This document shows positions 1,946-31,355 of a stretch of 64,000 bases of DNA, one piece after another. Source of the DNA: an uncultured Chloroflexia bacterium (GTDB lineage: Bacteria > Chloroflexota > Limnocylindria > Limnocylindrales > CSP1-4); the NCBI GenBank assembly GCA_963780425.1, contig CAWABZ010000008.1, positions 192,931 to 256,930 on the forward strand. Direction: 5' to 3'. The number at the start of each line of letters is the position of its first letter. Position 1 is the stretch's first letter. The notes under the pieces were generated by a model, which saw only the letters and a list, made by a program, of their open reading frames with translations, was not told where the DNA came from and made no database searches. The translations under genes and the position numbers were made by a program.

Positions 1946-1962
1946 CGTGAACGGCGGATGAA
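1946..1962 (-). promoter_or_regulatory. 11-bp-phased direct repeat GTGAACggcggATGAAT (gene-sense ATTCAT-N5-GTTCAC) upstream of osmC
   Basis: Read directly from the sequence. It lies 86-102 nt upstream of ATG 1860 and belongs to the recurrent motif family described in the findings. Confidence 0.45.
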
Positions 1963-2012
1963 TAGCGCCCGGCGCGACCACCTGAACGTTCAAGGTCCGC
2001 GACACGGGCACA

Positions 2013-2039
2013 CGGCGAGGAGCACGTGCCTCCTCGCCG
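2013..2039 (-). terminator. putative stem-loop terminator downstream of gap
   Basis: Perfect 10-bp stem CGGCGAGGAG / CTCCTCGCCG with a 7-nt loop, 48 nt past the gap stop. There is no clear U-tract. Confidence 0.4.
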
Positions 2040-2086
2040 TCGCATGCCGCTAGATCGTCGACGGTCGGTGGGTCTGTGTCGCGATC

Positions 2087-3112
2087 TCACGCATGGCTGC
2101 CGACGGGCAACCGGGCGGCCACCAGGCCGATGAGGTCGGCGACGCGACAGCTGAAGCCCCACTCGTTGTCGTACCAAGCGAGGACCTTGATCAAGGTGCC
2201 GTCGATCACCATCGTCATCGAGGAGTCGATGATCGAGGATCGGCTGTCGCCCCGGAAGTCGGAGGAGACGAGCGGTTCGTCGCTGACGCCGAGGATGCCC
2301 TTCATCGGGCCAGCCTCAGCGGCGCGGAAGGCCGCATTGAGTTCGTCAACGGTGGTCGGGCGGGCGACGTCGGCCGTGAAGTCGACGATGCTGACCGTCG
2401 GTGTCGGGACGCGGAGGCTGAAGCCGTCGAACTTGCCCTCGAGCTCAGGCATGATCAGCCCGAGGCTTCTGGTCGCGCCGCTTGTCGTCGGGACGATGTT
2501 CTGAGCCGCCGCGCGGGCACGGCGCGGATCCTTGTGCGCCGTGTCAAGGAGACGCTGCGAGGTCGTGTACGAGTGGACGGTGTTCATCAGGCCGCGTTCG
2601 ATCTTCACGAGGTCGTGGACGACCTTGACCGCAGGTACCAGGCAGTTCGTCGTGCACGAGGCATTGCTGATGATGTGGTGGCGCTCTGGGTCGTACTGAT
2701 CCTCGTTCACGCCGATAACGACCGTGAAGTCGGCGCCGCTGGCGGGGGCGCTGATGATCACCTTCTTGGCACCGGCGTCGAGGTGCGCCTGGGACTTGCC
2801 CGGGTCGCGGAACTTGCCGGTCGACTCGAGGACGATGTCGACGCCGAGGTCGCCCCACGGCAACGCTGCGGGATCGGATTCCTTGAACACCTTGATCTCA
2901 CGACCGTCCACGATCAAGGCGTCATCCGTGTGATCGACGATGCCGGGATAGGCCCCGTAGGTCGAGTCGTGCTTGAAGAGGAGTGCGTTCATCCCGGCGT
3001 CGACGAGGTCGTTGACGGCGACCACCTCGACGTCCGGCGTGCGCTCGATGATTGCCCGGAGCGACTGACGGCCGATCCGTCCGAAGCCATTGATCCCTAC
3101 ACGAACGGTCAT
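2087..3112 (-). CDS. gap: type I glyceraldehyde-3-phosphate dehydrogenase
   Basis: 341 aa and intact. It has the N-terminal INGFGRIGR and the catalytic SNASCTTNC motif. Confidence 0.95.
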
Positions 3113-3164
3113 TGTGATTCGCTCCTATCAAGTGGCTGAGATCGATCCAAGCCTCGGTCGCACG

Positions 3165-5085
3165 CTACCGGCGGGCCGTGAACGTGCCGGGCACGGACCG
3201 TGAACGCGGGATGAATGGGCGCCCGACCGGCCTGAAGGGACGCCTGATAAGGCGGTGGGCGGCGGCGGCGATTGCCGGCGCGTCGATGCCGGCCTCAGCG
3301 AGTTGTTCTTCCGGCGTCGCCGATCCGGGCATGTTTGCGACCGCGAGCCGGCTGAGTCGCGGATGCAGGTCGGCGTCCGCCAGCGCGGCGAGGACCGCTT
3401 CCCCGAGGCCGCCCTCGGGCCGGTGATCCTCGATCGTTACGATCCGGCCTGTCTCACGCGCGGCCGCGGCGATCGTGGCCGTATCAATCGGTTTGATGGA
3501 GTAGAGGTCGATGACCCGGGCGGCGATCCCGTCCGCCTCGAGGCTCTGCGACGCGGTGATCGCCTCGTGGAGGGTGATGCCGGCGCTGATGAGCGTGACA
3601 ACGTCGGAGGGGCTCGAGCGGACGACCCGGCTGCCGCCGACCGAGAACCGCTCATCTGGGCCATAGATGACCGGAGTCTTGCCACGGGTGGTCCGCATGT
3701 AGACGACACCGGGCCGATCCGCCATCGCGACGACGAGCTGGGCGGTCTGATTCGCGTCCGACGGATAGAGGACGGTGCTTCCCCAGACTGTTCGGAAGCT
3801 GGCGATGTCCTCGAGACCCATCTGGCTGGGGCCATCCGGGCCGATGCTGACGCCGGCGTGCGAGCCGCTGAGGCGGATGTTGGCGCGGCTTACCGCGGCC
3901 ATCCGGATGAAATCGAAGGCTCGGCTCCAGAACGCCCCGTAGGTCGAGGCGAATGGCACCCAGCCGCGAACCTGGAGGCCGACCGCGGCGGAGGCCATCT
4001 GCTGTTCGGCGATGTACATCTCGAAGTAGCGCTCCGGCAGGGCGGCCTCGAACAGCTCGGTGTAGGTCGAGTTGTCGACGTCGCCGTCGAGGGCAACGAC
4101 GTCGCCACGGGCACGACCGACTGCGACAAGCGCCTCGGCGTACGCTCGCCGGGTGGCCTCCATCGAGCCGACCTCGTAGCGCGGCGAGCTCGAGCTTCCC
4201 ACCTTGGAACCGGTGCGGAACCGCCTCCCCTTCCGGTTTGTGCACGGCGACCGTGACCCGCGGATGGGCGGCCGCTCCGAGCTCGTCGAGTGCCTCGTCG
4301 AAGTCGGCGAGCGGCTTCCCGTGCATACCGTTCTGGTCGGCGACGGCGCTCACGCCACTGCCCTTGACGGTCCGGGCGACGATCGCCGTCGGGCGGCCGC
4401 TCGTGGCGATCGCCTCGGCATACGCGGCATCGATCGCACTGACGTCGTGACCGTCGACCTCGATCACGTGCCAGCCGAACGCCTGTCAGTCGACGCGAAT
4501 AGACGCCGAGGTCCCAGCTATGCATCGTCTCGCGCGTCTGGCCAAGGCGATTGACGTCGATGACCGCGGTCAGGTTGTCCAGACCGGCGAACGCTGCATG
4601 TTCGAACCCCTCCCACATCGAACCCTCGGCGAGCTCCCCGTCGCCGGTCAGCACCCAGACCCGATAGGGGAGCCGATCCAGTCGTTTGCCGGCGAGGGCG
4701 ATGCCGACGGCGATCGGCAGTCCTTGGCCGAGCGAGCCGGTGGCGACATCGACCCAAGGCAGGACGGGTGTCGGGTGACCCTCGAAGCGGCTACCGCGCT
4801 CTCGGTAGGACGGAGTGCCTCCTCGTCGATCGCACCGGCGGCGCGGTACATGGCGTACAGCAACGGCGACGCGTGACCCTTGCTGAAGACGAGGTGGTCG
4901 TTTCGTGCGTCCTCGGGCGCATCGAAGTCGTACTGGAGGTACTTTTCCAGCAGGACCGCCATCAGATCGGCGGCCGACATCGACGACGTCGGATGGCCGG
5001 ACTCGGCGGCTGAACTCGCCCGGATCGAGTCGATCCGTAGCTGCCGGCCGAGGTTGGTCCAGGTCTCTTGCGTGCGGTCGTTCAT
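3165..5085 (-). pseudogene. tkt: transketolase, reading frame broken about 3 times (or assembly indels)
   Basis: The N-terminus reads MNDRTQETW...SGHPTSSMSAADL...FSKGHASPLLYA (frame of 4648..5085). It continues as FEGHPTPVLPWVDVATGSLGQG...VLTGDGELAEGSMWEG (frame of 3890..4654), then AFGWHVIEVDGHDV...HGKPL (frame of 3652..4467). The C-terminal 345 aa (ORF 3165..4202) is one open frame: ATRRAYAEAL...EMYIAEQQMASAAVG...GPSQMGLEDIA. Shifts are at about 4800, 4487 and 4203. The total length of 1921 nt is not a multiple of 3. Whether the ancestral gene was fused or split at about 4200 is unresolved. Confidence 0.85.
3178..3216 (-). promoter_or_regulatory. four 11-bp-phased units GTGAAC / GGGCAC / GTGAAC / ATGAAT upstream of gap
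   Basis: Units start at 3178, 3189, 3200 and 3211. The site is 66-104 nt upstream of the gap ATG (3112) and lies inside the last codons of the transketolase ORF. Confidence 0.45.
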
Positions 5086-5156
5086 GAGTTCGTCCTTGTG
5101 CGCTGTCGCGGGTGCCTCGAGTGATCGCGGCCTGCCCGCTGAGGTAGGCTCATTGC

Positions 5157-5441: not shown

Positions 5442-5458
5442 TCCGGAGGCGGGGCCGA

Positions 5459-7207
5459 TCACGACAGCCCCCCTTCCGCGACGAGGGCTTCGAAGCGCGC
5501 CCGGACGGCCGCCGCGGATCGATCCTCAAGCGCCGTCATCGCCGCCGGCTCGAGGTCCGCAAGACGAACGCCGCGGATCGCCCGCCGGACGGCCGGCAGG
5601 CTCGAGCTGGCCATGCTGAGCGATCGGATCCCGAGGCCTGCGAGGGCAACCGCGGCAACTGGATCCCCCGCCATCTCGCCGCAAACCGACAGGTCGATGC
5701 CGGCACGCTCGGCGGCCTCGACGGATAGCTGGATCAGCCGCAGGACACTCGGGTGGAGTGAGTCTCGATAGCGCTCGAGGCTGGCGTTGCCTCGGTCGAC
5801 CGCGACCGTGTATTGGAGAAGGTCGTTCGTCCCGAGACTGGCAAAGGCGATCCGGTCGAAGTAGGAGTCACTAACGAGGACCGAGGACGGGATCTCGAGC
5901 ATCACACCCAGGGCGACGTCGCCCATCGCGATGTTCTCCGCCGCAAGTTCGTCCCGCGCGCGCTTGGCGAGGTTCACCAGCAGGTCCACGTCGCCGGCGT
6001 CAGCGACCATGGGCGCCATGACCTTGAGGGGGCCGGCGGCGGCGGCCCGGTAACAGGCGCGCAGCTGGGTCACGAACGGGCTCGGGTCGGCGAAGGCCAG
6101 GCGGAGCGCACGAACGCCGAGGAATGGGTTGGCCTCATCGGCGATCGGCAAGTACGGGATCGGTTTGTCTCCACCGACGTCGAGCAGCCGGATCGTGACC
6201 GGGTGGGGCGCGAACGCCCGCACGACGCCCTCGTAGGCCGCGCAATTGCTCGGCTTCCGATGGCGGGCTTGACCGTTCGAGGAACAGGAACTCGGTCCGG
6301 AAGAGGCCGACACCCTGGGCGCCAAGAGCCACTGCGCTCCTCGCTATCCTCGGGTGTGCCGATGTTGGCGAGAAGGACGATCTCGACACCGTCGAGCGTC
6401 ACGGCCGGCTGAATCGCTTCGAGCAGGTCCGCTGCGTGCTGTCGCCGCTCGTCATTGGCATCGGCGTCGAGTCGTACTCGGGCGTTCTCGTCTGGATCGA
6501 CGATGACCTCGCCCGTGTTGCCGTCGATCGCGAGCTCCGTGGCCCGCCCACTCTCCCCCTCCGTGCGAAGCGTCGCAATCAGGTCGCTCGCCCCGACGAT
6601 CGCAGGAATGCCGTATGCCCGAGCCAGGATCGCGGCGTGCGCGGTGGGCGAGGAGCCCTCGAGGGCGACACCGAGGAGTCGTTCGCGCGGCAGCGTCGCC
6701 GTCACCGATGGCGGAAGATCGTCGGCGACAACGACGGCCGGCCGGTCGAGCGCTTCGCTCGCGGTGTCTAGCGTTCCACTGAGCCTTCGGGCGATCCGCT
6801 GCCCGACATCGAGCACGTCGACTGCCCGCGCCGCCAGCAACTCGTCGTCGAGCGATCGCAGCTGTTCAGCGAAGGAGCCAGCCGCGGCCTGGATCGCGGC
6901 GACCGCATCCTCGCTGGACTGCATTGATCCGCCCGACGGCCAGATCGATGAGGGCTGGATCACGAGCGATGCTCGACTGCGCCAGGAAGATCGCTGCCTC
7001 GTCGGTGTGACCGTCGGCCGTGATGCGTTCGGCGATCGCCTCGAGCTCGTCGCCCGCGGCGTTCGAGGCTGCACTTAGGCGCTCGGCCTCGCTGGAGGCA
7101 GCCTCGGGGTCGATTCGCCCACCGGCGGGAGCCGGCGTCGGGTCGATCAAGACCCAGGCTCCGCGCACCACACCAGGTGCTGCCGCGACGCCCTGCAGAC
7201 GCTTCAT
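5459..7207 (-). pseudogene. ptsI: phosphoenolpyruvate-protein phosphotransferase (PTS enzyme I), about 3 frameshifts
   Basis: Pieces lie in three frames. MKRLQGVAAAPGVVRGAW... is in 6866..7228. ...GSSPTAHAAILARAYGIPAIVG... (phospho-His region) is in 6070..7074. GAQGVGLFRTEFLFL is in 6135..6389. ...IRLLDVGGDKP...SLGTNDLLQY...CGEMAGDP is in 5459..6325. Shifts are at about 6933, 6355 and 6245. Confidence 0.9.
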
Positions 7208-9428: not shown

Positions 9429-9980
9429 GTCGGTACCTCCGAGTCCTCGAGATCGGCGGTCGGCAACGGCGCGTCGTCTTCATGACGCCGTTCGAAGGCG
9501 CCAACCAGTCGCAGCACCTCGTCGGGACCGGTAGCTCTGAGCAGTCCGACGCGGCTCTCTTCGTCCGAGAGGAACTCGGCAAGCGTGGACAGCGCCGTGA
9601 CGTGGCCCTCCTCGTCGGGCGCCGCAAGGCCGACGACAAGACGAACCGGGTCGTTCGTGCGGTGGCCGAAATCGACCGGTCGGGCGCAGGGTCACCAGGC
9701 TGATCCCGGCGTGAAGAACGGCCGGCGACGGGCGCGAATGGGCGAGCGCGATGCCCGGGGCGATCACGATGTACGGCCCAAGCTGCTCGACGGTCGCGAT
9801 CATCTCGTCCGTGTAGGCCGGCGCAGTCGCACCGCTCGTCACGAGCGCGTCGCCTGCGAGGCGTACGGCCGCCCGCCAATCGGGTGCACTGGCTCCGATG
9901 CGGATCGCCTTGACGGTCAGCAGCTGCGACAGTCGAGGTCCGGGCGTGACGTCGACGGCGGCTCGGGTCACCCTAGGCAT
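9425..9980 (-). pseudogene. PTS EIIA (mannitol/fructose/ascorbate EIIA-2 type), one frameshift
   Basis: The N-terminal part is in ORF 9480..9980 (...GPYIVIAPGIALAHSRP, the His region). After about 9685 the correct frame reads PVDFGHRTNDPVRLVVGLAAPDEEGHVTALSTLAEFL...DSEVPT and then a stop. The length is 556 nt (a multiple of 3 plus 1). Confidence 0.8.
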
Positions 9981-10663: not shown

Positions 10664-10779
10664 CGTCGGTCCTTTGATGCCTGCTTCGGTCAACGTGCTT
10701 GAGAGTCGCGGGGTTGGGCCCGTCGACGGCTTCGTCGTCCAAAGTTGGGCGCAAGACTTGAAGGACCGGCCGAATTGAC

Positions 10780-10796
10780 ATGAACGCTCGGTGAAC
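10780..10796 (-). promoter_or_regulatory. direct repeat ATGAACgctcgGTGAAC upstream of the fsa/PTS operon
   Basis: Units start at 10780 and 10791 (11-bp phase), 117-133 nt upstream of ATG 10663. A further ATGAAT at 10808 is out of phase. Confidence 0.4.
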
Positions 10797-12798: not shown

Positions 12799-12813
12799 TC
12801 CGACAGTCTCCGG

Positions 12814-13187: not shown

Positions 13188-13192
13188 GGTGG

Positions 13193-13772: not shown

Positions 13773-13860
13773 TGGCTCTCCGTTCGGGTGGGTGGCCGAT
13801 GGCTTCCATCGGCACGTCCGTGACGCTAGGAGCCACGCCTGTACCGCGGCAGAAATCGCG

Positions 13861-13877
13861 GTGAACGGCGCGTGAAT
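13861..13877 (-). promoter_or_regulatory. direct repeat GTGAACggcgcGTGAAT upstream of the membrane-protein/cupredoxin operon
   Basis: Units start at 13861 and 13872, 89-105 nt upstream of ATG 13772. Confidence 0.45.
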
Positions 13878-13936: not shown

Positions 13937-14821
13937 TCAGGCGGTCAGCCGAGGCCAGTTGGCGACGGACGATGAGATGGACACCCTGCGAGTACGTCCT
14001 CGACCGCGTCGGTGGCCAGCCCGATCGAGCGTCTCGGAGTTGGGAGACCCGTCTCGCGGGAATCGAGCTGGGCGCCGTCCGCGCGGCTTGACCACACCGC
14101 GGTACTGGTGGATGACGAGCAGCGCACAAGTGAGGAGCGCAACGGCTACACCCAGTGCGACCGCGACCAGCATCAACGATCCGAGCCGCAGGGCGACGAT
14201 GCCAGCGAGGATCCCTGCGACCACGCCATTGATGACCGCAAGCATTCCGGGGGTCGTGACGAATACATGGGCGAGGCTGCCCGGACCGGGGGTCGCGCCG
14301 TACGTGGCCATGACGCCTGGTTCATCGTCGTTCGACCCGGTGATGAAGTAGTCCCGAAGCTCGGGCGCCATCTCCAGGTAGGCGTGGCGCAGCATGTTCA
14401 TGCCAACCACCCAACCCACGTCTTCACGGTTGATGGCGACAAGCCGCGCGAATGACACAACTCCAACAAACAGGACGACAGGCAGGATCAGAAGCGCGAA
14501 CGTCACGAACCCATCGCCGAACGCGGTGGCCTGGGCGACGAGGGCAAGAGCAACCACTGCGCCGGACAACACCGACAGGAACATCGACCCGCGGCTGAAT
14601 GACTCGTTCCAGGACAGCGACCGGGTCGAGAGCAGACTCCAGTGCTCGGTCGTGAGGATCTGCAGGCGCAGGGCGGGCGACGCGTGATGCCCGCCTTCGT
14701 CAAGGAGGACGGCTTTCGCACCTCCTTCGTCGGGACCGTCTACACGCTCGCCGGACACCAAATCCCTCCTTGTCACTAGGCATCGAGCATGGAAGGCCTG
14801 CGGAAACATCGGGACGAACAC
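13937..14821 (-). CDS. polytopic membrane protein, hypothetical
   Basis: 294-aa ORF with several long hydrophobic segments. No family was recognised and the start is uncertain. Confidence 0.45.
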   Translation of the reverse strand: MFVPMFPQAFHARCLVTRRDLVSGERVDGPDEGGAKAVLLDEGGHHASPALRLQILTTEHWSLLSTRSLSWNESFSRGSMFLSVLSGAVVALALVAQATAFGDGFVTFALLILPVVLFVGVVSFARLVAINREDVGWVVGMNMLRHAYLEMAPELRDYFITGSNDDEPGVMATYGATPGPGSLAHVFVTTPGMLAVINGVVAGILAGIVALRLGSLMLVAVALGVAVALLTCALLVIHQYRGVVKPRGRRPARFPRDGSPNSETLDRAGHRRGRGRTRRVSISSSVANWPRLTA

Positions 14822-15715
14822 AAATCAACAGGGCATGAATGACGCGGCAGTCCGATCGAGCGAGCTCACGACGCTCTCGGATCAGGCCGAGCTCGATGCG
14901 CCGTGGGACTTGTGCCCGATCGGGGCGGCCGGACGCCTCGCAGTGGCGCGATAGATGGCGCCGGCTCTCGCCCGTCGACAGGTTCGACTGCCGATGGTGG
15001 CTAGGTATGCGGCCAGCATCGTTCACGATCCATTCACGTGAGTTCCTCGAGTCATTCGGCCTCGCCTCTGACGATGTAGACATGAACAGCACCGTCCGGC
15101 CTACCCGTCATCGCGATCGTCCACCAGCAAATCCGATGGACTACGTCGCCAGAAGGCTCTCCTCGCTCCCGATGGTCGGGGGCGCCTTCTTAGCGATCCT
15201 GGGCGCTGGCCTCCTCGAATCGGCGGGAGTGCCCAGTCCAGGCGCGATGGCAGCGGGCTTTGTTGTCTTCTTCGTATCCGCGTTGGCGGCCGACGTGACC
15301 CTCGGCCGCCTGATCCGTCAACGCGGGAACGGTCCGTGGTGAGTACGGCGTCGATGGACCCGCATCCGAGGACGACGCTTCTGATTCGCTCGGGGCAGCC
15401 CGACCGGCAGCCGTCTGGCATTGCGCGCCACGTCTCCCGCGTTGCGGCTTGGACCCGCCTCGAGGATGAGTTGCGATCGATCGCCGTCGATCTCTTGGGG
15501 CCGAATGAGACAGACGAGCTTCCCGAAGCAATGTGCCGAGTGGGTTGCAGCGACGACCCAGAAAGCGATATCGGGTATCTGCGATGCGGCACTTGATGGG
15601 CTCGTCCGGGCCCTCGATTCGCTCCTCGTCGACGTCCCGCCCGACGTCGCGCGTCGACTCGACGAGGCCAGGATCCGGCACGACGCCGGATACACCTGAG
15701 CCAGGAGACCGTGTC

Positions 15716-16406: not shown

Positions 16407-17102
16407 CTAGGGCGGAGCGATGAATCGGTATCCGAGGCCACGTTCGGTCTGGATGTAGCGTGGGGAGTCCGATGAGTCGCCGAGCTTGTCGCGGAGCCTG
16501 ACGGATGTAGACCCGGATGTAGTCGACCTCGTCGACATACTCGCGTCCCCAGACCTTGGCCAGGAGCGTGCCGTGCTCGAGGATATGGCCCGCGTTTCGC
16601 ACGAGGTGATAGAGGAGCTTGTACTCGGTCGGGGTCAGGTCCAGCCGCGTGCCGTCGAGTCGCGCCTCCTGCTTCGCGAAGTCGACCTCGAGATCCCCGG
16701 ATTTGAAGGATGGGACACGACTGGCGGGAGCTGGCATCTCCAGGCGCCGCAGGACCGCCTTGACCCTCGCCATCAACTCGAGATGGTTGAAGGGCTTGGT
16801 GACGTAGTCGTCAGCTCCGAGCTCGAGACCCTTGACCTTGTCCATCGCGTCATCGCGTGCCGTGAGCATCACGACCGGGACGTCGGAGAACGCCCGAATC
16901 TGCCGAAGCACCTCGATAACCATCGATGCCGGGCAGGCCCACATCAAGCAGAACGATGTCGGGATGCTCCCGCTCGACAATGTCCAGCGCGGCCTCGCCC
17001 TCGCCGGCCCCGAGGACATCGACGTCGCGCCACTGCAGCATGAAATCCAAGACGGACCGACTCGACGACATCAGGTTCGTCGTCGACAACGAGGATCCGC
17101 AT
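16407..17102 (-). pseudogene. OmpR/PhoB-family response regulator, 3 same-direction frameshifts
   Basis: MRILVVDDEPDVVESV runs from ATG 17102. HPDIVLLDVGLPGIDG is in 16850..17089. VVMLTARDD...GADDYVTKPF...LTPTEYKLLYHL is in 16312..17019. The final frame reads RLRDKLGDSSDSPRYIQTERGLGYRFIAPP and then TAG at 16409..16407. Shifts are at about 17045, 16925 and 16497. The net length of 696 nt is a multiple of 3. Confidence 0.85.
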
Positions 17103-18105
17103 CACGCCCCCTGAGGCGGTCCGGCCGCCGGAACGACCAGGGTAAACGTGCTTCCGCGACCCGGCCGGCTCCGGACCTCGATCGAGCCGCCATGCGCCTG
17201 GGCGATCGCGAGAGCTCTCGGTAGTCCGAGCCCAACGCCTTCCTGTGGGCTGTTCGGGTCATGACGCCCGACGAAGAATCGCTCGAACAGGTGTGCCTGG
17301 TCCGCAGCGGAGATGCCCGGTCCGTCGTCGGTCACCGACCAGCGGATCATGCCGTCGGTGGAACGGTTGAGTCGCACCGTGATGCGCCCTCCGTCTGGCG
17401 CGAAGTGATGGGCATTGGCGACGAGGTTCAGCAGCGCCCGATCGAGGCGCGGGCGGTCGCCGAACACGCGCAGGCGCAGGACCGCGCGGGATGCGCAGCA
17501 CAACGGTCTGCCTTCGGCCTTCAGCAAGCGGCCGGATCGTCGACACAGCTGACTCGGCGAGCTCGGTCGCGTCGAACTGGCGGAGCTGGAGCCCGATGGT
17601 CCCGGCTCGATAGCGAGCAAGGTCGAGGACTTCGCCGATGAGATGCTGCATCCGCTCCGCGTTTCGCTCCATGGTCTCGAGCATCGTGCGGCGCTGCTCG
17701 GCTGTCGGGTTGGACGCCGGGTCGAGCAATAGACCCGTACAGGGTTCGCATCACGGTGATCGGCGTTCGCAACTCATGCGCAATGATGGAAGGAAGTCGG
17801 TGCGCATCCGCTCCAGGTCCTTCATCGGACCCGCAGCCTCAGTCCAGGCACCGTGCTCGACCAGGCGCCGGCCGAGACTCGAGAGGACATACTCTCGAGC
17901 GGGTTCACCCCGAGCGATCCGAACCAGACCCAGCGAATTCAAGCTCGACCAGCAGATCCTCGGCGATGCCGGGCCGCAGGTCGGCGCCATTCTCGGAGAA
18001 TCGACTCTCGAGATCGGCGGCTGTTGCCCCGACCCGGATCAGCGCGAGCGCGGCAACAGCCAAGGGCGAAGTCCCTGTGCCGGGCGTCGTCATGTAGCTG
18101 AGCAT
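17102..18105 (-). pseudogene. cytoplasmic sensor histidine kinase, about 4 frameshifts
   Basis: The H-box IIAHELRTPITV, N-box LLNLVANAHHF, G-boxes DDGPGI and GLGLPRALAIAQAHGG are spread over four frames (ORFs 17905.., 17751.., 17521.., 17259.., 17102..). No transmembrane segment is present. Shifts are at about 17940, 17775, 17735 and 17485. Confidence 0.8.
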
Positions 18106-18113
18106 ACGACTCG

Positions 18114-18564
18114 CTACTCGACCGAGAGGACCGTGATGACTCGCGGTCCTGCTGGCGCCATGACCTCGACCCTGTCGCCGGGGGCGCAGCCCATCACAGC
18201 GGCTCCGAGGGGTGAATCGGCCGAGATCCAGCCTTGGACCGGATCGCCATCGCCAGGGAACACCAACGCGTAGGTGACCGAGTCGCCTTCCTCCTCGAGG
18301 AGCGTCACTCGCCGCCCGATCACGGCTCGGTCCGGTTCGTGAACCTTGTCGGGCGGCATCGAGCACCGCGGAAAGGACGTCCAATCGGCGGGCGGCCTTG
18401 AAGACCGGGAGATGGACGACGCCGTCGTTCGGGGCGCCGGCCTCGGCGAGCACGGCGAGGTCGATCCGTAGCTGGCCAAGCTCATCGACGAGCGTGAGCC
18501 AGGCTTCTCCGGTCATCGGCCAGCGTTGGTTGGCTGAGGCCTGTCGGATCGCCGGCTCGTTCAT
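18114..18564 (-). pseudogene. GreA/GreB-family (Rnk-like) protein, one frameshift
   Basis: The C-terminal domain AVIGRRVTLLEEEGDSVTYALVFPGDGDPVQGWISADSPLGAAVMGCAPGDRVEV is in ORF 18114..18485. The N-terminal helical part is in the frame of 17905..18570. The shift is at about 18370. Confidence 0.6.
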
Positions 18565-18566
18565 GG

Positions 18567-18722
18567 TCACATGACCTCCTCGTCATAGGAACAGATGCAC
18601 GGTCCTCCCGCGACGCAGCCAGAGCAGCAGAACGGAAGGCCGACATGGAAGACCGCGTTCCCGACGATCTCGATTTCGCAGGAAACACAGGTAAAGGGGT
18701 ATTCGGTGCTCAGGCGGCGCAT
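18567..18722 (-). CDS. 51-aa seven-cysteine metal-binding mini-protein (TRASH/YHS- or SmtA-like zinc ribbon)
   Basis: MRRLSTEYPFTCVSCEIEIVGNAVFHVGLPFCCSGCVAGGPCICSYDEEVM. ATG 18722 lies within ORF 18567..19124, and the stop is 3 nt from the GreA-like ATG. It has a paralog at 30375..30620. Confidence 0.6.
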   Translation of the reverse strand: MRRLSTEYPFTCVSCEIEIVGNAVFHVGLPFCCSGCVAGGPCICSYDEEVM

Positions 18723-18825
18723 GGGGGACCTCGTGGTGAGACGGCTCAGCGCACTGACGCGTGGCCGTCCCATGGACGTGTCCAGCGAAGCTACTGACGC
18801 GGCCTGAAGGCCCTCGGGAACTCGC

Positions 18826-18842
18826 ATGAAAAAAGCGTGAAC
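18826..18842 (-). promoter_or_regulatory. direct repeat ATGAAAaaagcGTGAAC upstream of the 7-Cys operon
   Basis: Units start at 18826 and 18837, 104-120 nt upstream of ATG 18722. Confidence 0.35.
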
Positions 18843-18863
18843 TCGGCCCGATGCCGCCCGCTC

Positions 18864-18903
18864 ATTCACACGTCCGTTCATGTGCGTCCACGTGTTCGTT
18901 CGT
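18864..18903 (+). promoter_or_regulatory. cluster of RTTCRY hexamers upstream of gdh
   Basis: The hexamers are ATTCAC at 18864, GTTCAT at 18876, GTCCAC at 18886, and GTTCGT at 18894 and 18898. They lie 58-97 nt upstream of ATG 18961, and the spacing of 10-12 bp is less regular than at the other sites. Confidence 0.35.
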
Positions 18904-18960
18904 GTGCTGACGTGACCCTTGGGCGACATCGTCAGACGATCGACGTGCGTGGAGGCAGCG

Positions 18961-22916: not shown

Positions 22917-23154
22917 TGGTTGCAATCCTTCCGGTGCGCCGTCCTCGGCTGCTCCGTGCTTCGTGTTGCGGTCAGACACGGAGGACCCGGCCTGCAACGC
23001 TCCAACACTCTTTCGAACTGACGGTACGGCTGTGCGGTAAACAGGCTGGTCAACGTCCATGTACGCCAGATGAATGGGCACCCTCGGCCGTGCCAGTCGC
23101 CACGCAGCGGACACTCCGTGACGAACGCTCCGTTCGGGTCGCTACAGTCGCTCC

Positions 23155-24636
23155 ATGACGCGCGACACGATTACGACCGCGAGCCGCCGGCGGACCAAGC
23201 TCGTTTGCACGATTGGGCCTGCGACCGAACTACGGATGGACGAGATGGTCATGGCCGGGATGGACGTCGCGCAAATCAACTTTTCGCATGGCACCGCGGC
23301 CTCGCGCCAAGCGACTGCTATTGCTGCCCGCCAAGCCGAGGCAGCGAGTGGGCGACCGGTCGGGATCATGACCGATCTTGCAGGCCCCAAGATCCGGTTG
23401 GGCGACTTCGCCGATGGGTCGATCGACCTCATGCCCGGTCGCCCCTTCGCCCTTCGCGCCTTTCGAAACGGTGAGCCGCCGGGCGATGCTGCGGGTGTCC
23501 AGGTTTCGTACGCAGGGCTCGCCACGGATGTCCGGGTGGGGGATCGCGTGCTCCTTGCGGATGGGGCAGCGGAGCTGCGCGTGATCAGCGTCGGTAGTCA
23601 CGTCGAGACTGAGGTCGTGCGAGGAGGAACGGTCCGTTCTCGAACCGGGGTCGCCATCCCTGCCGACAGGCTGTCATCGCCCGCCCTCACCGCCAAGGAC
23701 CGAGCCGATCTGCCAGTGGCGATCGAACTCGGTGCCGATCTCATCGGTCAGTCGTTCGTCCGGGGACCTGATGACATCCTGGCCCTTCGGGCGCTGCTGG
23801 GGCCGGACGGGCCGCACATCGTCGCCAAGATCGAGACGCGTCCGGCAGTCGAGTCGTTTGACGCCATCCTCGACGTCGTGGACGCCGTGATGATCGCGCG
23901 TGGCGATCTCGGCGTGGAGGTGCCGTACGAAGAAGTGCCGCTGATCCAGAAGCAGCTCGTGCGCCGGGCGCTCGACCGGGGCATCCCGTCTATCGTGGCT
24001 ACGCAGATGCTCGAGTCGATGACCAGTTCGCCTCGCCCCACGCGCGCAGAGGCCAGCGACGTCGCGAACGCCGTGTTCGATGGTGCCGATGCGATCATGC
24101 TCAGCGGCGAGACAGCGATCGGTGCGTATCCGGTGCTCGCGACCGAAGCCGCCACGCGGATCGCCTTGCGGTGCGAGATCGGCGGGACTTCGCATCTGCC
24201 GGCGGGCATGGCCCCCTCACATGGTGCCGACATCGGGGCACTGGCCTTTGCAGCTGCGGCGCTGGTGACCGCGGACGCGAGCATCGAGGCGATCGCCTGC
24301 TATACGCGCACCGGCCGGACTGCACGGATCCTGTCGGCGCTCCGGCCCGGTGTGCCAATCGTCGCCTTTTCGCCGGACCCGCATGTCGCCGGGCGCCTGG
24401 CGCTCGCCCACGGCGTCTTCGCGCGGACATGCGCACTCTTCGGAGAGTCGTCGGATCGGATCGTGGAGTTGGAACGGCTGCTCCGCGACACACGGATCCT
24501 GGCTGCCGACGCGTCGGTCGTGTTCGTCACGTCAGCGGGAGCTCCGGGATCGGCGCCGGACGTCCTGGCCATTCGTCACGTGCCCGTTGATCTTGGACCG
24601 CAGCCGACCGAGCCTGGCCAACGGGCCTCGCCCTGA
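23155..24636 (+). CDS. pyk: pyruvate kinase
   Basis: 493 aa and intact. Motifs: RRTKLVCTIGP, MDVAQINFSHG, IVAKIETR, MIARGDLGVE, ATQMLESM. Confidence 0.95.
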   Translation: MTRDTITTASRRRTKLVCTIGPATELRMDEMVMAGMDVAQINFSHGTAASRQATAIAARQAEAASGRPVGIMTDLAGPKIRLGDFADGSIDLMPGRPFALRAFRNGEPPGDAAGVQVSYAGLATDVRVGDRVLLADGAAELRVISVGSHVETEVVRGGTVRSRTGVAIPADRLSSPALTAKDRADLPVAIELGADLIGQSFVRGPDDILALRALLGPDGPHIVAKIETRPAVESFDAILDVVDAVMIARGDLGVEVPYEEVPLIQKQLVRRALDRGIPSIVATQMLESMTSSPRPTRAEASDVANAVFDGADAIMLSGETAIGAYPVLATEAATRIALRCEIGGTSHLPAGMAPSHGADIGALAFAAAALVTADASIEAIACYTRTGRTARILSALRPGVPIVAFSPDPHVAGRLALAHGVFARTCALFGESSDRIVELERLLRDTRILAADASVVFVTSAGAPGSAPDVLAIRHVPVDLGPQPTEPGQRASP

Positions 24637-24645
24637 CACCGCGAC

Positions 24646-24672
24646 GTTCACGGGGCGTACATGTCAGTTCCC
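24646..24672 (+). promoter_or_regulatory. three phased hexamers GTTCAC / GTACAT / GTTCCC just after pyk, ahead of the long trpS leader
   Basis: Units start at 24646, 24657 and 24667. This would give a ~430-nt leader before ATG 25097. Confidence 0.3.
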
Positions 24673-25096
24673 ACGGGTTTCCCCGTCGGTCGTCGACCAT
24701 CGGATCATGAACACCATCGAGTCCCGGCTCCGCCGGCCCCGAACGCATGTCGCTGATACGGTCGACCTATCCCGCCGGTGGCCCTCCTTATCGCTCATCG
24801 TCGACTCCGTCCTCGGTGTCGCCCGATGGATGCGTTGGACTGCAGGCGGGTGGATCCGTGACCTCGGCTCATCGACCCAGCTGGGTCCCGATCCCGAACA
24901 GGTCACCGGACGGGCAACCGGGGCCCGAACGTAACCCAGCGGCTGCTGCAGCGGCATCTACCTGATGCGGGCAGACGTCGTTCGTGTGAGCCCCGTCCAA
25001 ATCCTGCCCGGTACTAGCGCTGCGTCTCATCTACGGTGCACGTCGTCCGCCGCGGGTGAGAAGGAATCCAGGACGCCGAATAGGCTGAGCAGGTCG

Positions 25097-26140
25097 ATGT
25101 CAAACAACAACGCAAGGAACGACCTCGAACCCGATGATACCCGCCGGCCGCGGCTGCTCACCGGTGATCGGCCGACAGGTCCGCTCCACCTCGGGCACTT
25201 CGTCGGCACGCTGCGGAACCGCCTGCGTCTTCAGGAAACGCATGACACGTTCATCCTCGTGGCAGACCAGCACATGCTGACCACCCGCCTCGACCACCTC
25301 TCGGAGATCGAGGCGAACATCCGCGAGGACGTCGTGGGCAACCTCGCGGTGGGTGTGGACTCGACCAGGGCGACGATCTACCTCCAGTCGCGTGTGCCCG
25401 AGACGGCCGAGCTGTTCCTCTACTTCGCGATGCTTGTTTCGGTGGCTCGGGCCCAGCGGATCCCCACTCTCAAGGACAAGCTCCGCGAGACACGTCTCGC
25501 TCAGCCGTCGTACGGCCTGCTCGGATACCCGGTCCTTCAGGCGGCTGACATCCTCCTCGTCAAGGGCGACGTGGTGCCTGTCGGCCCCGATCAGGCTGCC
25601 CACGTGGAACTCGCCCGCGAGATCGCCCGCAGCTTCAATGAGCGGTTCGTGCCCGTATTCCCAGTGCCTTCCGGTCTGGCCCCAGCGTCAGGCACGCTTC
25701 CAGGCATCGACGGTTCGCCGAAGATGAGCCGATCGGTCGGGAACACGATCAACCTCTTCGATGACCCGGAGGCTGTTCGCGCCAAGGTCATGTCGATGTA
25801 CACCGATCCAACCAGGCTTCGTGCAACCGACCCGGGACACGTCGAGGGGAATCCAGTGTTCGCCTACCACGACGCGTTCAACGCCGACACAGACGAGGTG
25901 GAGGATCTGAAGCAGAGGTACGTCGCCGGACGGGTTGGCGACGTAGAGGTGAAGCAGCGACTCGTCGCGACTTTGGAGTGTTTCCTCGACCCAATTCGGC
26001 AGCGTCGGCGAGACCTGCTGGCGGAGAACCCCACGATCGTCGAGGACGTGCTACGAACCGGAACGGCCCGTGCCCGCATCGAGGCCGCCGCGACGATGCG
26101 ACAAGTCCGAACGGCCATGCATCTTGACTACTTTGCCTAG
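25097..26140 (+). CDS. trpS: tryptophan-tRNA ligase
   Basis: It has the class I motifs [12 protein letters not shown] (HIGH-like) and KMSRS (KMSKS-like). ATG 25097 is within ORF 24965..26140. Confidence 0.9.
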
Positions 26141-26859: not shown

Positions 26860-26869
26860 GATCCTGCCG

Positions 26870-29711
26870 CTACCGTTGAGCCGCCAGGCGGCGGAGGACG
26901 GCTGGCAGGATGCCACCGTGGCGGTAGTAGTCGACGTCGATCGGGCCGTCCAGGCGGGCCACAACCTCGAACGAGCGTTCGCGACCGTCGCCATCGTGCC
27001 GGACGACCACATTGAGCCGGCAGCGCGGCGCGAGACTGTCGGCGATGCCCTCGACCGCGAACGACTCATGACCCGTGAGGCCGATCGACGCGGCGCCATC
27101 GCCGGGTAGGAACTCGAGCGGCAGGACGCCCATCCCGACCAGGTTTGAACGGTGGATCCGCTCGTAGCTCTCGGCGATGACGGCGCGGATGCCCAGGAGG
27201 GTCGTCCCCTTTGCCGCCCAGTCGCGCGACGACCCGGAGCCGTATTCGCGACCGGCGATGATGACCAGGGGGACACCTTCGTCCCGATACTTCATCGCAG
27301 CGTCGTAGATGAAGGCCTCTTCGCCATCCGGGAGATGGATCGTATACGGCCCTTCCTTGCCATCGACGAGACGGTTGCGCAGGCGGATATTGCCAAACGT
27401 GCCCCGCATCATGACCTCGTGATGGCCGCGCCGGGCGCCGTACGAGTTGAAGTCCAAAGGCGACACATCGTGCTCCTGGAGCCACTGGCCGGCCGGTGAC
27501 TTCGGGGCGATCGAACCGGCCGGCGAAATGTGGTCGGTCGTCACCGAATCGCCGAAGACCGCGAGCACCCGTGCACCCACGATGTCGGCGACGGGCGCGG
27601 GCTCGGTGGAGACGCTGTCGAAGAACGGTGGCCTGGCGACATACGTCGAGCTCGCGTTCCAGGCGTATCGATCGCCGGCTGGTGTCGGCAGCGCCCGCCA
27701 GCGATCGTCGCCATCGAACACGACGGCGTACGTTCGCCGGAACAGCTCAGGATCGATCGAATCGCTGATCACGGCCCGGATCTCGTCGGGCCCTGGCCAA
27801 AGATCCGAGAGCATCACCGGCAGCCCGTCGCGGTCGCGCCCCAGTGGCTCGGTGGTCAGGTCGATATCGACCCGCCCGGCAAGTGCAAACGCAACAACGA
27901 GCGGCGGTGAGGCGAGATAGCTCGCGCGCGCGAGGGGATGGATTCGCCCTTCAAAGTTCCGGTTTCCAGACAGCACCGCGGCTACGACAAGGTCGTTCTC
28001 TTCGATGGCCGTTGCGATCGGCTCGTCGAGCGGACCGGAGTTGCCGATACACGTCGTGCAGCCGTATCCGGCAAGCGCGAAGCCGAGCTGCTCGAGCGGC
28101 GCCATCAGCCCGGCTGTCTCGAGATAGCCGGTGACGGCCCTGGAGCCCGGGGCCAGGGACGTCTTGACGGTCGGGCTGACCGTGAGCCCGCGCGCCACGG
28201 CGTTCCTCGCCAGCAAGCCCGCTCCGACCATCACTGTCGGATTGGAGGTATTCGTGCACGAGGTGATTGCGGCAATCACCACGGACCCCATCCGGATGGA
28301 TCCTCTCGTTGCCCCGGTCTCTTGTGTGCCCTTCGCTGGAAGTGCGTCATCGACGACCGAATCGGCTATCGGCGCGGCGGAGTCGGCTTCCTGCTCGCGT
28401 TCGCCGCCGCGGGCGTACGAGGGCGGGTCACTTGCCGGGAACGAGTCGGCAGATGCCACCTCGACGACTCCCTCGATCGGTCGAGGACTCTCCGGCTCCC
28501 CTTCGAGCCCGGCAGCGTCCGCTCGGGAAGTTGGCGCGGAAGTTCTCCTTGAGCCGCATCGAGACCGACTCGATCCTGGGGACGGCGCGGCCCGGCCAGC
28601 GATGGGACGACCGACGTCGAGATCGAGCTCGATGAGCGCATCGAAGTCGAGGGCAGTACCTGGATCACGCCATAGGCCCTGTTCCTTCGCGTAGCGCTCG
28701 ACGAGGGCCACGCGATCATCGGAGCGCCCCGTCAGTCGCAGGTACTCGAGCGTCTCGTCATCGATCGGAAACAGCGTGGCCGTGGCCCCGAACTCCGGGC
28801 TCATGTTGCTGATCGTTGCCCGGTCGGCGAGCGACAGGCTGGCCAGACCGTCACCGGCGAACTCGACGAAGGAGCCGACGACACCAAACGTGCGCAGCAT
28901 CTCGGTCACCACAAGGACGAGGTCGGTCGCGGTCGAACCCTGCGGCAGCTCGCCGTGAAGACGCACGCCGACGATCCGCGGCATGGGCACGTAGAGCGGC
29001 TGGCCGAGCAACACGGCCTCGGCCTCGATCCCGCCCACCCCGTAGCCGAGCACACCGAGGCCGTTGACCATCGTCGTGTGCGAGTCGGTCCCGACAAGCG
29101 TGTCCGGGAATGCAACACGGCCGCGCTCATCCGCGCGATCGGCGACGACCGTGGCCAGATACTCCAGGTTGACCTGGTGGACGATCCCGGTTCCCGGTGG
29201 TACGACCCGCAGGCCCTGGAACGCGGTCTGGGCCCATCGAAGCAGCTGATACCGCTCACCGTTGCGCTCGTACTCGCGATCGACGTTGAATGCGAAGGCG
29301 CCTGGTGTCCCGAATCGATCGACCTGGACCGAGTGGTCGATAACGAGGTCTGCCGGCACCAGCGGATTGACCTTCGCGGGATCGCCGCCGAGGTCGGCGA
29401 TGGCGTCTCGCATCCCGGCCAGGTCCACGATCGCGGGCACGCCGGTAAAGTCCTGGAGGAGGACTCTCGACGGCATGAACGGGATCTCTGCATCGGCCAT
29501 CGCGACCGGGTCGCCAACTGGCGAGCACCTCGACGTGCGTGGGCTGCACAAGGCCGCGGCCGGCATGTCGGAGCACGTTCTCGAGCAGGATGCGCAGCGT
29601 CACCGGAGCGTGATCGAGGTCCAACCGATCGGCAAGGACGGCGAGTCGGTAGTGATCCGGATGCCCCGAACCTAGGCTCGCCCTCGCGCCGTAACGGTCA
29701 TGGTCAGGCAC
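26870..29711 (-). pseudogene. acnA: aconitate hydratase A, about 4 frameshifts
   Basis: The main ORF 26870..29566 carries VLLQDFTGVP, GTDSHTT, ITSCTNTSNP, CTTCIGNSG, SGNRNFEGR and REYGSGSSRDWAAKG. The N-terminus (GTG 29711, ...HYRLAVLADRLDLDHAPVTLRILLEN) is in another frame, with a shift at about 29515. Three more shifts lie within 28530..28630: VVPSLAGPRRPQDRV and LKENFRANFPSG appear in the two other frames. Confidence 0.95.
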
Positions 29712-29803: not shown

Positions 29804-30214
29804 CTAGCGTGAAAGCGCACGGACAAGGTCGCTGTCCGAGATGACACCGAGTGCCGTTTCGGGGTCTTCGCCGACCACCACAAGCCGATCGACGTCGCAC
29901 TCGGTCATCATCCGCGCGGCTTCGGTCAGCGTGGCCGAACCGCGGATGGTGATGGCAGGTCGCGTCATCACGTCCCGAACCAAGACGGCGCCCCAAGCGG
30001 ACGACTGGACCGACGAAGCCGAGAGCCTGACGAGATCGGTCTGGCTGACCACTCCGACCAGGAGTCCCTCTGCGTCGACAACGGGCAGACCCCCGATGTC
30101 GTAGTCCGACAGAAGCTGGGCGACTCTGAATAGATCGACGTCTGGGGCGACGACGACTGGGTCACCCGCCGTCAGATCGACAACGAGGGCTTCGGACTCG
30201 TTCCTGTGCGCCAT
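29804..30214 (-). CDS. CBS-pair domain protein
   Basis: 136 aa and intact, with two CBS motifs (...IGGLPVVDAEGLLVGVVSQTDL... and ...VDRLVVVGEDPETALGVISDSDL...). Confidence 0.85.
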   Translation of the reverse strand: MAHRNESEALVVDLTAGDPVVVAPDVDLFRVAQLLSDYDIGGLPVVDAEGLLVGVVSQTDLVRLSASSVQSSAWGAVLVRDVMTRPAITIRGSATLTEAARMMTECDVDRLVVVGEDPETALGVISDSDLVRALSR

Positions 30215-30258
30215 GAGAGGACGCTAGAGCGTGCCCGTCGAGGTCACCGGAAACGCCC

Positions 30259-30275
30259 GTGAACAAGGCGTGAAC
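30259..30275 (-). promoter_or_regulatory. direct repeat GTGAACaaggcGTGAAC upstream of the CBS gene
   Basis: Units start at 30259 and 30270, 45-61 nt upstream of ATG 30214. Confidence 0.45.
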
Positions 30276-30374
30276 GGATGAGGGGCGGTCACCGACGTCG
30301 CCGACCGTGGCCCTGCTCGTCCGACGACTGATGTCGCTCGAAGTGGTCGCGCATCGTCGGAATCTCGTACGGCG

Positions 30375-30620
30375 CTACCGCCTGGAAAGGGCAAGGTCAC
30401 GTGACGACCGGGTCATTCGCGATGGCGTCAAGAGATCCGACACATCGTGGCAGTGTCGGACACGGGCGTTGCCCTGCACCGCGATCGAGCAGGTGCAATC
30501 TCGGCCGGCTACGCATCGGGCGCAACAGAACGGAAGCCCCGCCTGGAAGATGGGTGCGCCGGTGATGCCTACCTCGCAGGTCGCGCACGAGGGCGCCAGG
30601 TCGGCGTCAGGACGATGCAC
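30375..30620 (-). CDS. seven-cysteine mini-protein, paralog of 18567..18722, with a longer C-terminal tail
   Basis: ...LAPSCATCEVGITGAPIFQAGLPFCCARCVAGRDCTCS... is within ORF 30375..30773. The proposed start is GTG 30620, preceded by GAGGAG 6 nt upstream. The ~35-aa tail is absent from the paralog. Confidence 0.5.
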   Translation of the reverse strand: MHRPDADLAPSCATCEVGITGAPIFQAGLPFCCARCVAGRDCTCSIAVQGNARVRHCHDVSDLLTPSRMTRSSRDLALSRR

Positions 30621-30730
30621 AGCGGGCTCCTCGACATACAGCGATGGCACCGCGGACAAGCCAAAGTCCCTGCCCGCTAGTGCCACCGCCCCGAAGGTAG
30701 GTGACTGGACTGACAAGCCCGGGAATCGGC

Positions 30731-30747
30731 GTGAACGCCCGATGGAC
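30731..30747 (-). promoter_or_regulatory. direct repeat GTGAACgcccgATGGAC upstream of the second 7-Cys gene
   Basis: Units start at 30731 and 30742, 111-127 nt upstream of GTG 30620. Confidence 0.4.
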
Positions 30748-31338
30748 GACGCAGCGGGCCCGGAGTTCTTCATGCGCCGTTCACGTGACTTCCCCCGGAT
30801 CGACAGTGGCGCGATCTAGCCTCAATTCGACGCAGACGTCCTGCCTCCCCCGGTCGGGGCACATGCAGGACTGGAAATGGAGGCGATCAAGATGACGAGA
30901 CAGACAACGGCTCTCGCGGCGGGCTGGGACGCGGCAGAGTGGGCAAGCACGGAGCGGTCGGCACCCGGTCGCGACGTAAACGAAGTGGAGTCTCTGGCAG
31001 TGGGTGGGAACACCGCGGCCGGAAGGCTCAACTATCGATGGCCGCGGAGATAGTGCCCTATCGGGATTCTCGGGCCATAACCCCAGCGGTCAGCTCTCGT
31101 CTGCGGCACGAACCTTCGCCATTGCAGGCGGGCTCCTCGACGGACTCGGCGATGGCCGGCTCAGCGCGAGGCTCGATCCACAGGATGGTCTGTGCTGCGT
31201 GGCGATCTCGGACGAGCCCCCAGCCAGCGCTCAGCGATGAGGTTCCGGGGATCGCGCGTACCTGACCTGCCGGGGGACTTCGAGCCGATCGGGAGGACGG
31301 CCGGTCGGTAGTCGGCCCCGCGCGAGCGCCGGCGGGGT

Positions 31339-31355
31339 ATTCACGCCACGTTCAC
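31339..31355 (+). promoter_or_regulatory. direct repeat ATTCACgccacGTTCAC upstream of the first USP gene
   Basis: Units start at 31339 and 31350, 74-90 nt upstream of ATG 31429. A further GTTCAC lies at 31403. Confidence 0.45.

Follow-up and report, generated by a model that had tools for sequence, protein, structure and literature searches.

Phased hexamer arrays and the RR1 operon

The DNA analysed here, referred to below as the window, is a stretch of 64,000 nucleotides (G+C content, 68%) from contig CAWABZ010000008.1 of an uncultured Chloroflexia bacterium placed in the Limnocylindria. These are abundant soil and freshwater Chloroflexota that are almost wholly known from metagenome-assembled genomes (MAGs). 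Our subject is an array of hexamers related to GTTCAC that recurs at 14 places in the window, together with the operon encoding RR1, an OmpR-family response regulator that probably binds these arrays. Genes and features were identified by Pfam, NCBIfam and Rfam, by PDB and tblastn searches, and with ARAGORN and AlphaFold2. The RR1 operon consists of the following genes.

16407..17102, minus strand: RR1, the OmpR-family response regulator, with Response_reg and Trans_reg_C domains (winged-helix)
17102..18105, minus strand: the cognate histidine kinase, with HisKA and HATPase_c domains, frameshifted here
18114..18570, minus strand: a protein with a GreA/GreB C-terminal domain, frameshifted here, which adjoins RR1 in 24 of the 82 comparison loci described below
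18567..18722, minus strand: the 7-Cys protein, with seven invariant cysteines, encoded by the first gene of the operon

Frameshifts break many genes between ~3 and ~35 kb (3165-35900), for example those at 16407-17102, 17102-18105, 18961-20240, 11543-12798 and 5459-7207. RR1 itself carries three, and its reconstruction by frame joining gave a protein of 230 aa. Because intact metagenome proteins that are 99% identical to this repaired RR1 exist, the frameshifts are most likely assembly indels rather than signs of pseudogenes or decay. The close relatives of the window DNA stem from long-read MAG projects, and some RR1-like metagenome proteins are labelled Candidatus Limnocylindrales or Chloroflexota.

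A preliminary description of this DNA listed ten instances of two to four hexamers spaced 11 bp apart, upstream of at least ten transcription units. All ten were found in the sequence, the first of them at 1947 rather than 1946. The exact two-unit pattern RTTCAY-N5-RTTCAY had seven matches on both strands, against 0.02 expected from 100 dinucleotide-preserving shuffles, none of which reached seven (an enrichment of ~350-fold). The single hexamer GTTCAC was only mildly enriched (36 vs 22.6), and the signal therefore resides in pairing and phasing. When one mismatch was allowed or a position weight matrix (PWM) was used, 13 window sites at 11-bp phasing were obtained. The first PWM, which covers units 1-3 and was trained on these 13 regularly spaced sites, scored each of them at 26.8 bits or more, the next-best window position reaching 12.7 bits, and gave no match in the same sequence reversed. 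A second PWM, built from other genomes only, recovered exactly 14 window sites at 10 bits or more and nothing else, again with none in the reversed control. The added site, which scores 11.8 bits with this matrix, is the one at 18864 upstream of gdh.

The count was thus extended to 14 sites, four of which (14824-14840(-), 15021-15037(+), 23059-23075(-) and 30768-30784(+)) are new relative to the earlier list. All lie between 1.9 and 31.4 kb, and the PWM scan found none in the 32-64 kb part of the window. Each is outside confidently coding DNA and, as had been proposed, is in the sense orientation of the same-strand gene downstream. The site ahead of gap overlaps the transketolase ORF 3165-4202 only in its non-domain tail, the Pfam transketolase domains stopping at residue 311 of 345.

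Layout of the elements

All units are direct repeats. Their starts fall at offsets 0, 11, 21 and 33 in 13 of the 14 window sites, as they do in the set of 143 non-redundant sites from other loci. Unit 1 (RTTCAY) is followed by a 5-nt spacer, unit 2 (GTTCAY) by a 4-nt spacer and unit 3 (RTTCCC-like) by a 6-nt spacer that leads to a weaker unit 4 (nTTCAn/gTTCa), which gives the consensus gTTCACG...cGTTCAyG...gTTCCC......gTTC. A GCGCC flank had been noticed at several sites; it is partly conserved and corresponds to the spacer of the 11-nt unit, GTTCAyG-nnn-C. Ten nucleotides past unit 4, at offsets 49-54, lies a -10-like hexamer (TAnnnT-like: TAGCGT, TACGGT, GACGAT), whose second letter is A and whose sixth is T in 12-13 of 13 window sites. 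No -35 hexamer was seen in the window or other-locus alignments, where the columns at its expected place, 17 nt before the -10, are almost uninformative.

Three window ATGs lie exactly 6 nt past the -10 (the CBS gene at 30214 and the ORFs at 15082 and 24707), and in the other loci ATG is enriched at offsets 61-62, that is, 6-7 nt past the -10 (17 sites vs ~3 per other offset), some of these ATGs opening a 7-Cys gene. This pile-up indicates leaderless mRNAs that would start ~7 nt after the -10. The best reading of the layout is that each element represents a whole activator-dependent promoter, which can be described by a 55-nt model. The repeats and the 11-bp phasing of the preliminary description are retained in this model, while its two to four hexamers become four units plus a -10. 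Its distance of 45-130 nt to the start codon fits most sites and fails for trpS, the annotated start of which is ~400 nt away because a small leaderless ORF precedes it.

Such an arrangement has well-known counterparts. At the E. coli PhoB pho box and at the sites of B. subtilis PhoP, tandem direct repeats phased by one helical turn replace the -35 at activator-dependent promoters, and B. subtilis PhoP uses four TTAACA-like repeats at ~-60 to -20. The half-site, the content of the regulon and the phylum all differ from those described here.

The 14 predicted promoters are given below, from unit 1 to the -10. L-numbers (L002, L023, L068 etc.) are labels of the comparison loci, followed where available by the position and strand of the site.

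S1, 1909..1963, minus strand: upstream of an osmC / NAD_binding_1 oxidoreductase / CMD operon (Pfam OsmC, NAD_binding_1 and CMD); the site reads ATTCAT-ccgcc-GTTCAC-gcat-GTCAGC-gggcaa-GTTCAT-N10-TACGGT
S2, 3162..3216, minus strand: upstream of gap (2087-3112), with the -10 TAGCGT and the ATG 49 nt after it; a gap site is also found in at least six other loci, some with an RR1 identity of only 78-86%
S3, 10742..10796, minus strand: upstream of fsa/transaldolase (9968-10663), with sites at fsa also in L023, L050, L068 and L073; PTS IIB, PTS IIC (EIIC-GAT), enzyme I and a split transketolase lie 3' of fsa on the same strand
S4, 13823..13877, minus strand: ahead of genes for two small membrane proteins and a cupredoxin (12806-13190), together with a frameshifted ferredoxin-reductase-like gene (11543-12798); orthologous site in L002 (11092+)
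S5, 14786..14840, minus strand: not in the earlier list; precedes a gene (13937-14758) for a membrane protein of 273 aa without a known family; orthologues in L050 (10819+) and L068 (4518+)
S6, 15021..15075, plus strand: not in the earlier list; the ATG at 15082, 6 nt past the -10, opens a small membrane ORF, probably leaderless, with genes for a 119-aa and a DUF488 protein after it; orthologue in L002 (11075-)
S7, 18788..18842, minus strand: upstream of RR1's own operon (7-Cys, GreA-like, histidine kinase, response regulator)
S8, 18864..18919, plus strand: upstream of gdh (18961-20240, frameshifted), with the -10 GACCCT; the first spacer is 6 nt instead of 5 in this assembly, but the site is in register with the gdh promoters of other genomes through units 2-4 and the -10
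S9, 23021..23075, minus strand: not in the earlier list; upstream of yceI (22353-22916), DUF1622 (21841-22245) and a Crp/Fnr-family regulator (21121-21705); orthologue in L073 (892+)
S10, 24646..24700, plus strand: the ATG at 24707, 6 nt past the -10, opens a leaderless 75-aa ORF, followed by trpS (25097-26140) and a UDG-family gene; orthologues in L002 (7500-) and L004 (6996-)
S11, 30221..30275, minus strand: upstream of a CBS-domain gene (29804-30214), probably leaderless, with its ATG 6 nt past the -10 TAGCGT; aconitase (26870-29566) lies 3' of it on the same strand
S12, 30694..30747, minus strand: upstream of a second 7-Cys paralogue (~30471-30620), with unit 4 one nucleotide closer to the -10 than usual (9 rather than 10 nt)
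S13, 30768..30822, plus strand: not in the earlier list; divergent from S12 and upstream of a small conserved ORF (30877-31053); orthologue in L002 (2640-)
S14, 31339..31393, plus strand: upstream of a run of universal-stress-protein (USP) genes (31429 to ~33434), with a cupredoxin/multicopper-oxidase (NirK-like) gene 3' of the run on the same strand; orthologues in L002 (1531-) and L007 (7888-)

The site S10 had been placed ahead of a trpS leader. It does lie there, and the supposed leader region contains the small leaderless ORF (24707-24934). At gathering score Rfam had no match across the window, and in 24600-25150 a limit of E<=1 gave none either. A T-box ahead of trpS was considered and is ruled out by the absent Rfam T-box match and by the conserved leaderless ORF that fills part of the interval. 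The C-terminal motif of this 75-aa ORF, QLGPDPEQV.GR.TGART, is shared by a second small regulon protein, in L005 (7359+), and looks like the hallmark of a family of small leaderless proteins. Several small regulon proteins had no match in Pfam; among them, the two small membrane proteins and the 273-aa protein were also blank in NCBIfam.

Conservation beside RR1 homologues

A scan of species-representative genomes gave 80 loci with an RR1 homologue, and two more came from metagenome contigs, for a total of 82 loci and 1.37 Mb. All retrieved RR1-bearing records are MAGs. The loci were picked via the presence of RR1, and the sites sampled are those near RR1. The identity to RR1 is 74-98% in MAGs of the Limnocylindria and "uncultured Chloroflexia," 69-72% in Thermomicrobiales MAGs and 56-60% in Dehalococcoidia MAGs. 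With the units-1-3 PWM and a cut-off of 18 bits or more, 172 further sites were found in these loci, and none in the same sequences reversed.

These sites keep features that played no part in their selection. The -10 was not used, and NAnnnT lies at offset 49 in 91% of the 143 non-redundant sites and one position further, at 50, in another 8%. Unit 4, equally unselected, is conserved in the same set (T34, 81%; T35, 72%; C36, 78%). Under the crude gene caller used for this comparison, 78% of the DNA counts as coding, yet 169 of the 172 sites fall in intergenic stretches (binomial P ~6e-105), which bears out the intergenic location proposed earlier. The next downstream gene is in the same orientation as the site in 161 of the 172 cases. 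These two counts go against the refuting conditions named in the preliminary description, an equal frequency within coding DNA or on the wrong strand.

This orientation bears on the possibility that the hexamers are recognition elements of an ECF-type alternative sigma factor. Read on the opposite strand, unit 3 is GGGAAC and resembles the -35 elements of ECF promoters, but that strand points away from the genes, the sites facing them in the TTCAC orientation. Moreover, units 3 and 4 lie 22 and 10 nt from the -10, whereas spacers in the sigma-70 family are 16-19 nt, and four phased direct repeats are no sigma signature. We consider a sigma factor very improbable.

Among the site positions, that at RR1 is the most conserved. 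Of the 72 loci in which RR1 identity is 65% or more and the upstream DNA suffices, 69 carry a site within 2.6 kb upstream of RR1, and a site points at the RR1 operon in 54 of the 72 loci at this identity. None of the four loci with homologues of 56-60% identity carries a site. Upstream of RR1 there is usually a divergent pair of sites, with unit-1 starts 5-60 bp apart, and the same architecture is found beside 71-72%-identical homologues in two Thermomicrobiales MAGs. After the downstream ORFs had been clustered with a coding-score filter, gdh was found downstream of 54 sites in 52 loci, while the other member of the pair faces an operon opening with the 7-Cys gene. In tblastn searches the 7-Cys gene was near RR1 in 67 of the 82 loci; for gdh the count was 61 and for the GreA-like gene 24. 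The conserved core of the regulon is this divergent promoter pair, gdh on one side and 7-Cys/(GreA-like)/kinase/RR1 on the other, and the window shows exactly this arrangement at 16407-20240. The association of the sites with RR1 is thus, like their geometry and their conservation, a matter of direct observation.

Other targets also recur in other species. They include gap, osmC/NAD_binding_1 oxidoreductase/CMD (AhpD-like), fsa, USP genes and the small-membrane-protein/cupredoxin operon, as well as trpS, the DUF488 operon, YceI, CBS, Rieske proteins and Dps. In total, sites are kept upstream of orthologous genes in ~70 related species. In DNA of 68% G+C with many assembly indels, hexamers might be over-read by eye, and the pattern could have been due to chance, to low complexity or to a dispersed mobile repeat. 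This reading is already refuted by the ~350-fold enrichment over shuffles and the empty reversed controls, by units and -10 elements that persist although the spacers vary from site to site, and by the conservation at orthologous promoters in dozens of species.

Two further observations concern the arrangement of these loci. Positions 1-33000 of the window are ~90-93% identical at the DNA level to L002 and L068, where the same regulated operons occur in another order; in L002 trpS, and not gdh, is divergent from the RR1 operon. It seems that promoter-gene cassettes have been reshuffled among close relatives. In addition, three MAGs (L007/L016, L024/L040 and L027/L048) each have two copies of the RR1 module on different contigs, with own sites at each copy, which suggests duplication of the whole system.

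The putative regulator and its probable mode of control

We consider it likely that the sites form the regulon of one autoregulated OmpR-family response regulator, RR1, which would bind head-to-tail and activate genes of stress defence, redox and central metabolism. The preliminary description had proposed an OmpR/PhoB-type regulator of a stress or energy-limitation regulon, and the direct repeats, their one-turn phasing, the lock to the -10 and the conservation in related species agree with this. Of the two OmpR-family regulators that it put forward, RR1 has a conserved site at its own operon; the other, encoded at 39692, has none. A match at 39406-39422 upstream of this second regulator (12.7 bits) lacks unit 3, unit 4 and the -10 and was rejected as spurious.

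RR1 is below every NCBIfam equivalog cutoff, and among solved structures it comes closest to RegX3, MtrA, M. tuberculosis PhoP, PrrA and KdpE. The closest named DNA-binding domain in the PDB search was that of KdpE (3zq7, E 7e-17), an unnamed response regulator (6cqg) scoring slightly higher. The recognition helices are alike (DYIRVYIRQLRDKL in RR1, HYLRIYMGHLRQKL in KdpE), and the JGI annotation labels RR1 homologues "KdpE." Since RR1 has no KdpD-type kinase nearby and no kdp genes were found in the window, L001 or L002, and since RR1 reaches 165 bits against a cutoff of 325 in the KdpE equivalog model NF007820, the system is not KdpDE.

A phosphate regulator has to be weighed more carefully. 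The footprinted PolR site of Microlunatus, GTTCACnnnnnGTTCaC, has the same core, GTTCAC-N5-GTTCAC, as the window boxes and the 11-nt Streptomyces PhoP repeat unit, and PHO boxes and PolR sites are multi-unit arrays of 11-nt direct units as here (PMC6754071). The boxes could then be PHO boxes of a PhoP/PhoB-type regulator, or sites of another OmpR-family paralogue, with the RR1 operon merely one target, and TTnAC-type half-sites are indeed often common to OmpR-family paralogues. PhoP and PolR, however, control phosphate transport and polyphosphate genes in Actinobacteria. In this chloroflexotal system no phosphate uptake or scavenging gene (no pst, phoU, pit, ppk or phosphatase-type target) was found, either at the 14 sites of the window or among the targets that recur in the 82 loci, pst promoters lying outside the sample, and here too the preliminary description, which had argued against a phosphate regulon, holds. 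RR1 is no PhoB equivalog (185 bits vs a cutoff of 296, TIGR02154), and the fixed four-unit 11/10/12 layout locked to the -10 also sets these sites apart. Pho systems have a PhoR-type kinase, whereas that of RR1 is short and has only HisKA, HATPase_c and a ~95-aa N-terminus without a family match. Finally, the most conserved site position is that at RR1's own operon (69/72 loci). We therefore regard a phosphate regulator or another paralogue as unlikely, and return to RR1 as the probable binder.

A precedent for how RR1 would act is GlnR. Head-to-tail binding on direct repeats is documented for the OmpR subfamily, for example for PhoB, PmrA and GlnR, and in the actinobacterial GlnR activation complex four protomers occupy four sites with an 11-bp period around the -35, the promoter-proximal protomer sitting downstream of the -35 and touching sigma region 4 and the beta flap (PMC10235972). 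As here, the four head-to-tail GlnR sites are ~11 bp apart and span the -35, with the proximal one downstream of it (PMC10235972). A further link is that gdh, a nitrogen-metabolism gene, is the most conserved target of the present regulon. The regulator itself is not GlnR because the half-sites differ (gTnAc / GaAAC for GlnR, TTCAC / TTCCC here) and because GlnR is an orphan, while RR1 has a kinase that, by gene order, is co-transcribed; RR1 is also no closer to GlnR than to other OmpR-family members.

From this GlnR-like four-unit geometry without a -35, we infer activation by two tandem dimers of phosphorylated RR1; the binder, the direction of regulation and the signal are all read from sequence here. 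Phosphorylated RR1 would bind the array, probably as two tandem dimers, strongly at units 1-2 and more weakly at units 3-4. If transcription starts ~7 nt past the -10, the array would span ~-61 to -23, and RR1 would recruit RNA polymerase in place of the -35 contact, like PhoB-type and GlnR-type activators. RR1 would thereby activate its own operon (positive autoregulation), the divergent gdh and a variable set of other operons. These would comprise GAPDH, Fsa/PTS/transketolase, OsmC/AhpD-like/NAD_binding_1 oxidoreductase, the USPs and the CBS protein, and also cupredoxin/Rieske/ferredoxin reductase, YceI, a second TrpRS and, in a relative, Dps.

Several points weigh against this model. The assignment to RR1 is built on co-localisation and conservation, the loci were chosen by the presence of RR1, and a paralogous OmpR-family regulator with the same half-site is possible. 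The first PWM was trained on the window sites, a circularity that is mitigated by the unselected features and the reversed-sequence controls. With spacings of 11/10/12 bp and weak units 3 and 4, it may be that only one dimer binds specifically. The transcription start is deduced from the -10 and the leaderless ATGs.

The overlap with the -35 region is, in addition, compatible with repression, in which RR1 or another binder would use the array to occlude this region. An array at ~-61 to -23 would block RNA polymerase, and many OmpR-family regulators act both ways. Nevertheless, the promoters have no -35 hexamer that could be occluded, the columns at its expected place, 17 nt before the -10, being low in information. 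The fixed distance and helical register to the -10 in 91% of the sites would be expected for recruitment and are unneeded for occlusion, and the layout equals that of the four-site GlnR activation complex. Repression is thus quite improbable, and activation by RR1 is favoured.

For the signal we offer a guess. The RR1-operon kinase has 333 aa, the first ~95 of which are outside any Pfam family; Pfam gave no sensor domain even at E<=1, and no membrane span was obvious by eye in the sequence, no membrane-span predictor having been run. By eye, its N-terminus (17800-18105; L002 8257-8560) looks helix-helix-helix-strand-strand and winged-helix-like. The 7-Cys protein has no match in Pfam or NCBIfam, and its AlphaFold2 model is unusable (mean pLDDT 45); our guess is that the protein may need a bound metal or cluster to fold. 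The two window paralogues (18567-18722 and ~30471-30620) are lineage-restricted and share the motif TCxxC...FHVGLPFCCxGCxAGGPCxCSYD. Since the kinase is without a recognised sensor domain and the operon opens with this invariant-cysteine protein, and since the targets are peroxide defence, USP/CBS proteins, copper and Rieske carriers and central carbon/glutamate metabolism, we speculate that redox, metal or energy limitation is sensed via the Cys-rich partner and the kinase.

Mycobacterial DosR offers a parallel in content. It governs a clustered regulon rich in USPs, with a CBS protein and redox and metabolic enzymes, through an autoregulated two-component system. The analogy is functional only, as DosR is of the NarL/LuxR type and acts on a palindrome, while here an OmpR-type regulator would act on direct repeats.

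Genomic context and significance

The second two-component system (39692-43118) consists of an RppA/PmrA-like regulator and a kinase, followed by a protease that looks trypsin/HtrA-type (by sequence look only), an arrangement that we take to resemble MprAB-PepD. It carries no TTCAC array. ARAGORN placed a tRNA-Arg(cct) at 42104-42179 inside the ORF 41781-43118; this tRNA is absent from Rfam at gathering score and may be a false positive.

Between the two systems, in the region 35140-36060, a tyrosine-recombinase (phage integrase) remnant (PF00589, E 1.3e-12 when joined over one frameshift) adjoins tRNA-Glu(ctc) (35984-36060, minus strand), and the G+C content steps from ~0.66 to ~0.71 there. 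A genomic island may thus carry the regulon cluster, although a search of the window for a second, direct copy of the tRNA-Glu 3' end, the expected sign of the island's other boundary, found none. If the regulon travels with RR1 on such an island, its gain or loss as a unit would be possible.

A bolder proposal is that the 7-Cys protein, the GreA/Rnk-like protein, the sensor-less soluble kinase and the KdpE-like RR1 together make up an as yet undescribed master switch of Limnocylindria and Thermomicrobiales, sensing redox or metal state via the Cys-rich partner, perhaps at an Fe-S or Zn site, and driving a dormancy-like programme from a tRNA-Glu-linked island. We put this forward as tentative and rather doubtful. 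If it were true, the programme would combine glutamate catabolism, lower glycolysis, the pentose shunt, peroxide defence, USP/CBS proteins and copper electron carriers.

Most likely the regulon is new and the mode of control well known: four OmpR-family sites replacing a -35 would add another case without changing how such systems are understood. Our literature search found no paper on transcriptional regulation in Limnocylindria. For these bacteria the present work would provide a testable regulatory code, made of the 55-nt promoter model, the candidate regulator RR1 and a core target set. It also offers predicted -10 elements and leaderless starts for a phylum with poorly described promoters. 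The promoter model can be scanned across MAGs and checked in soil metatranscriptomes.

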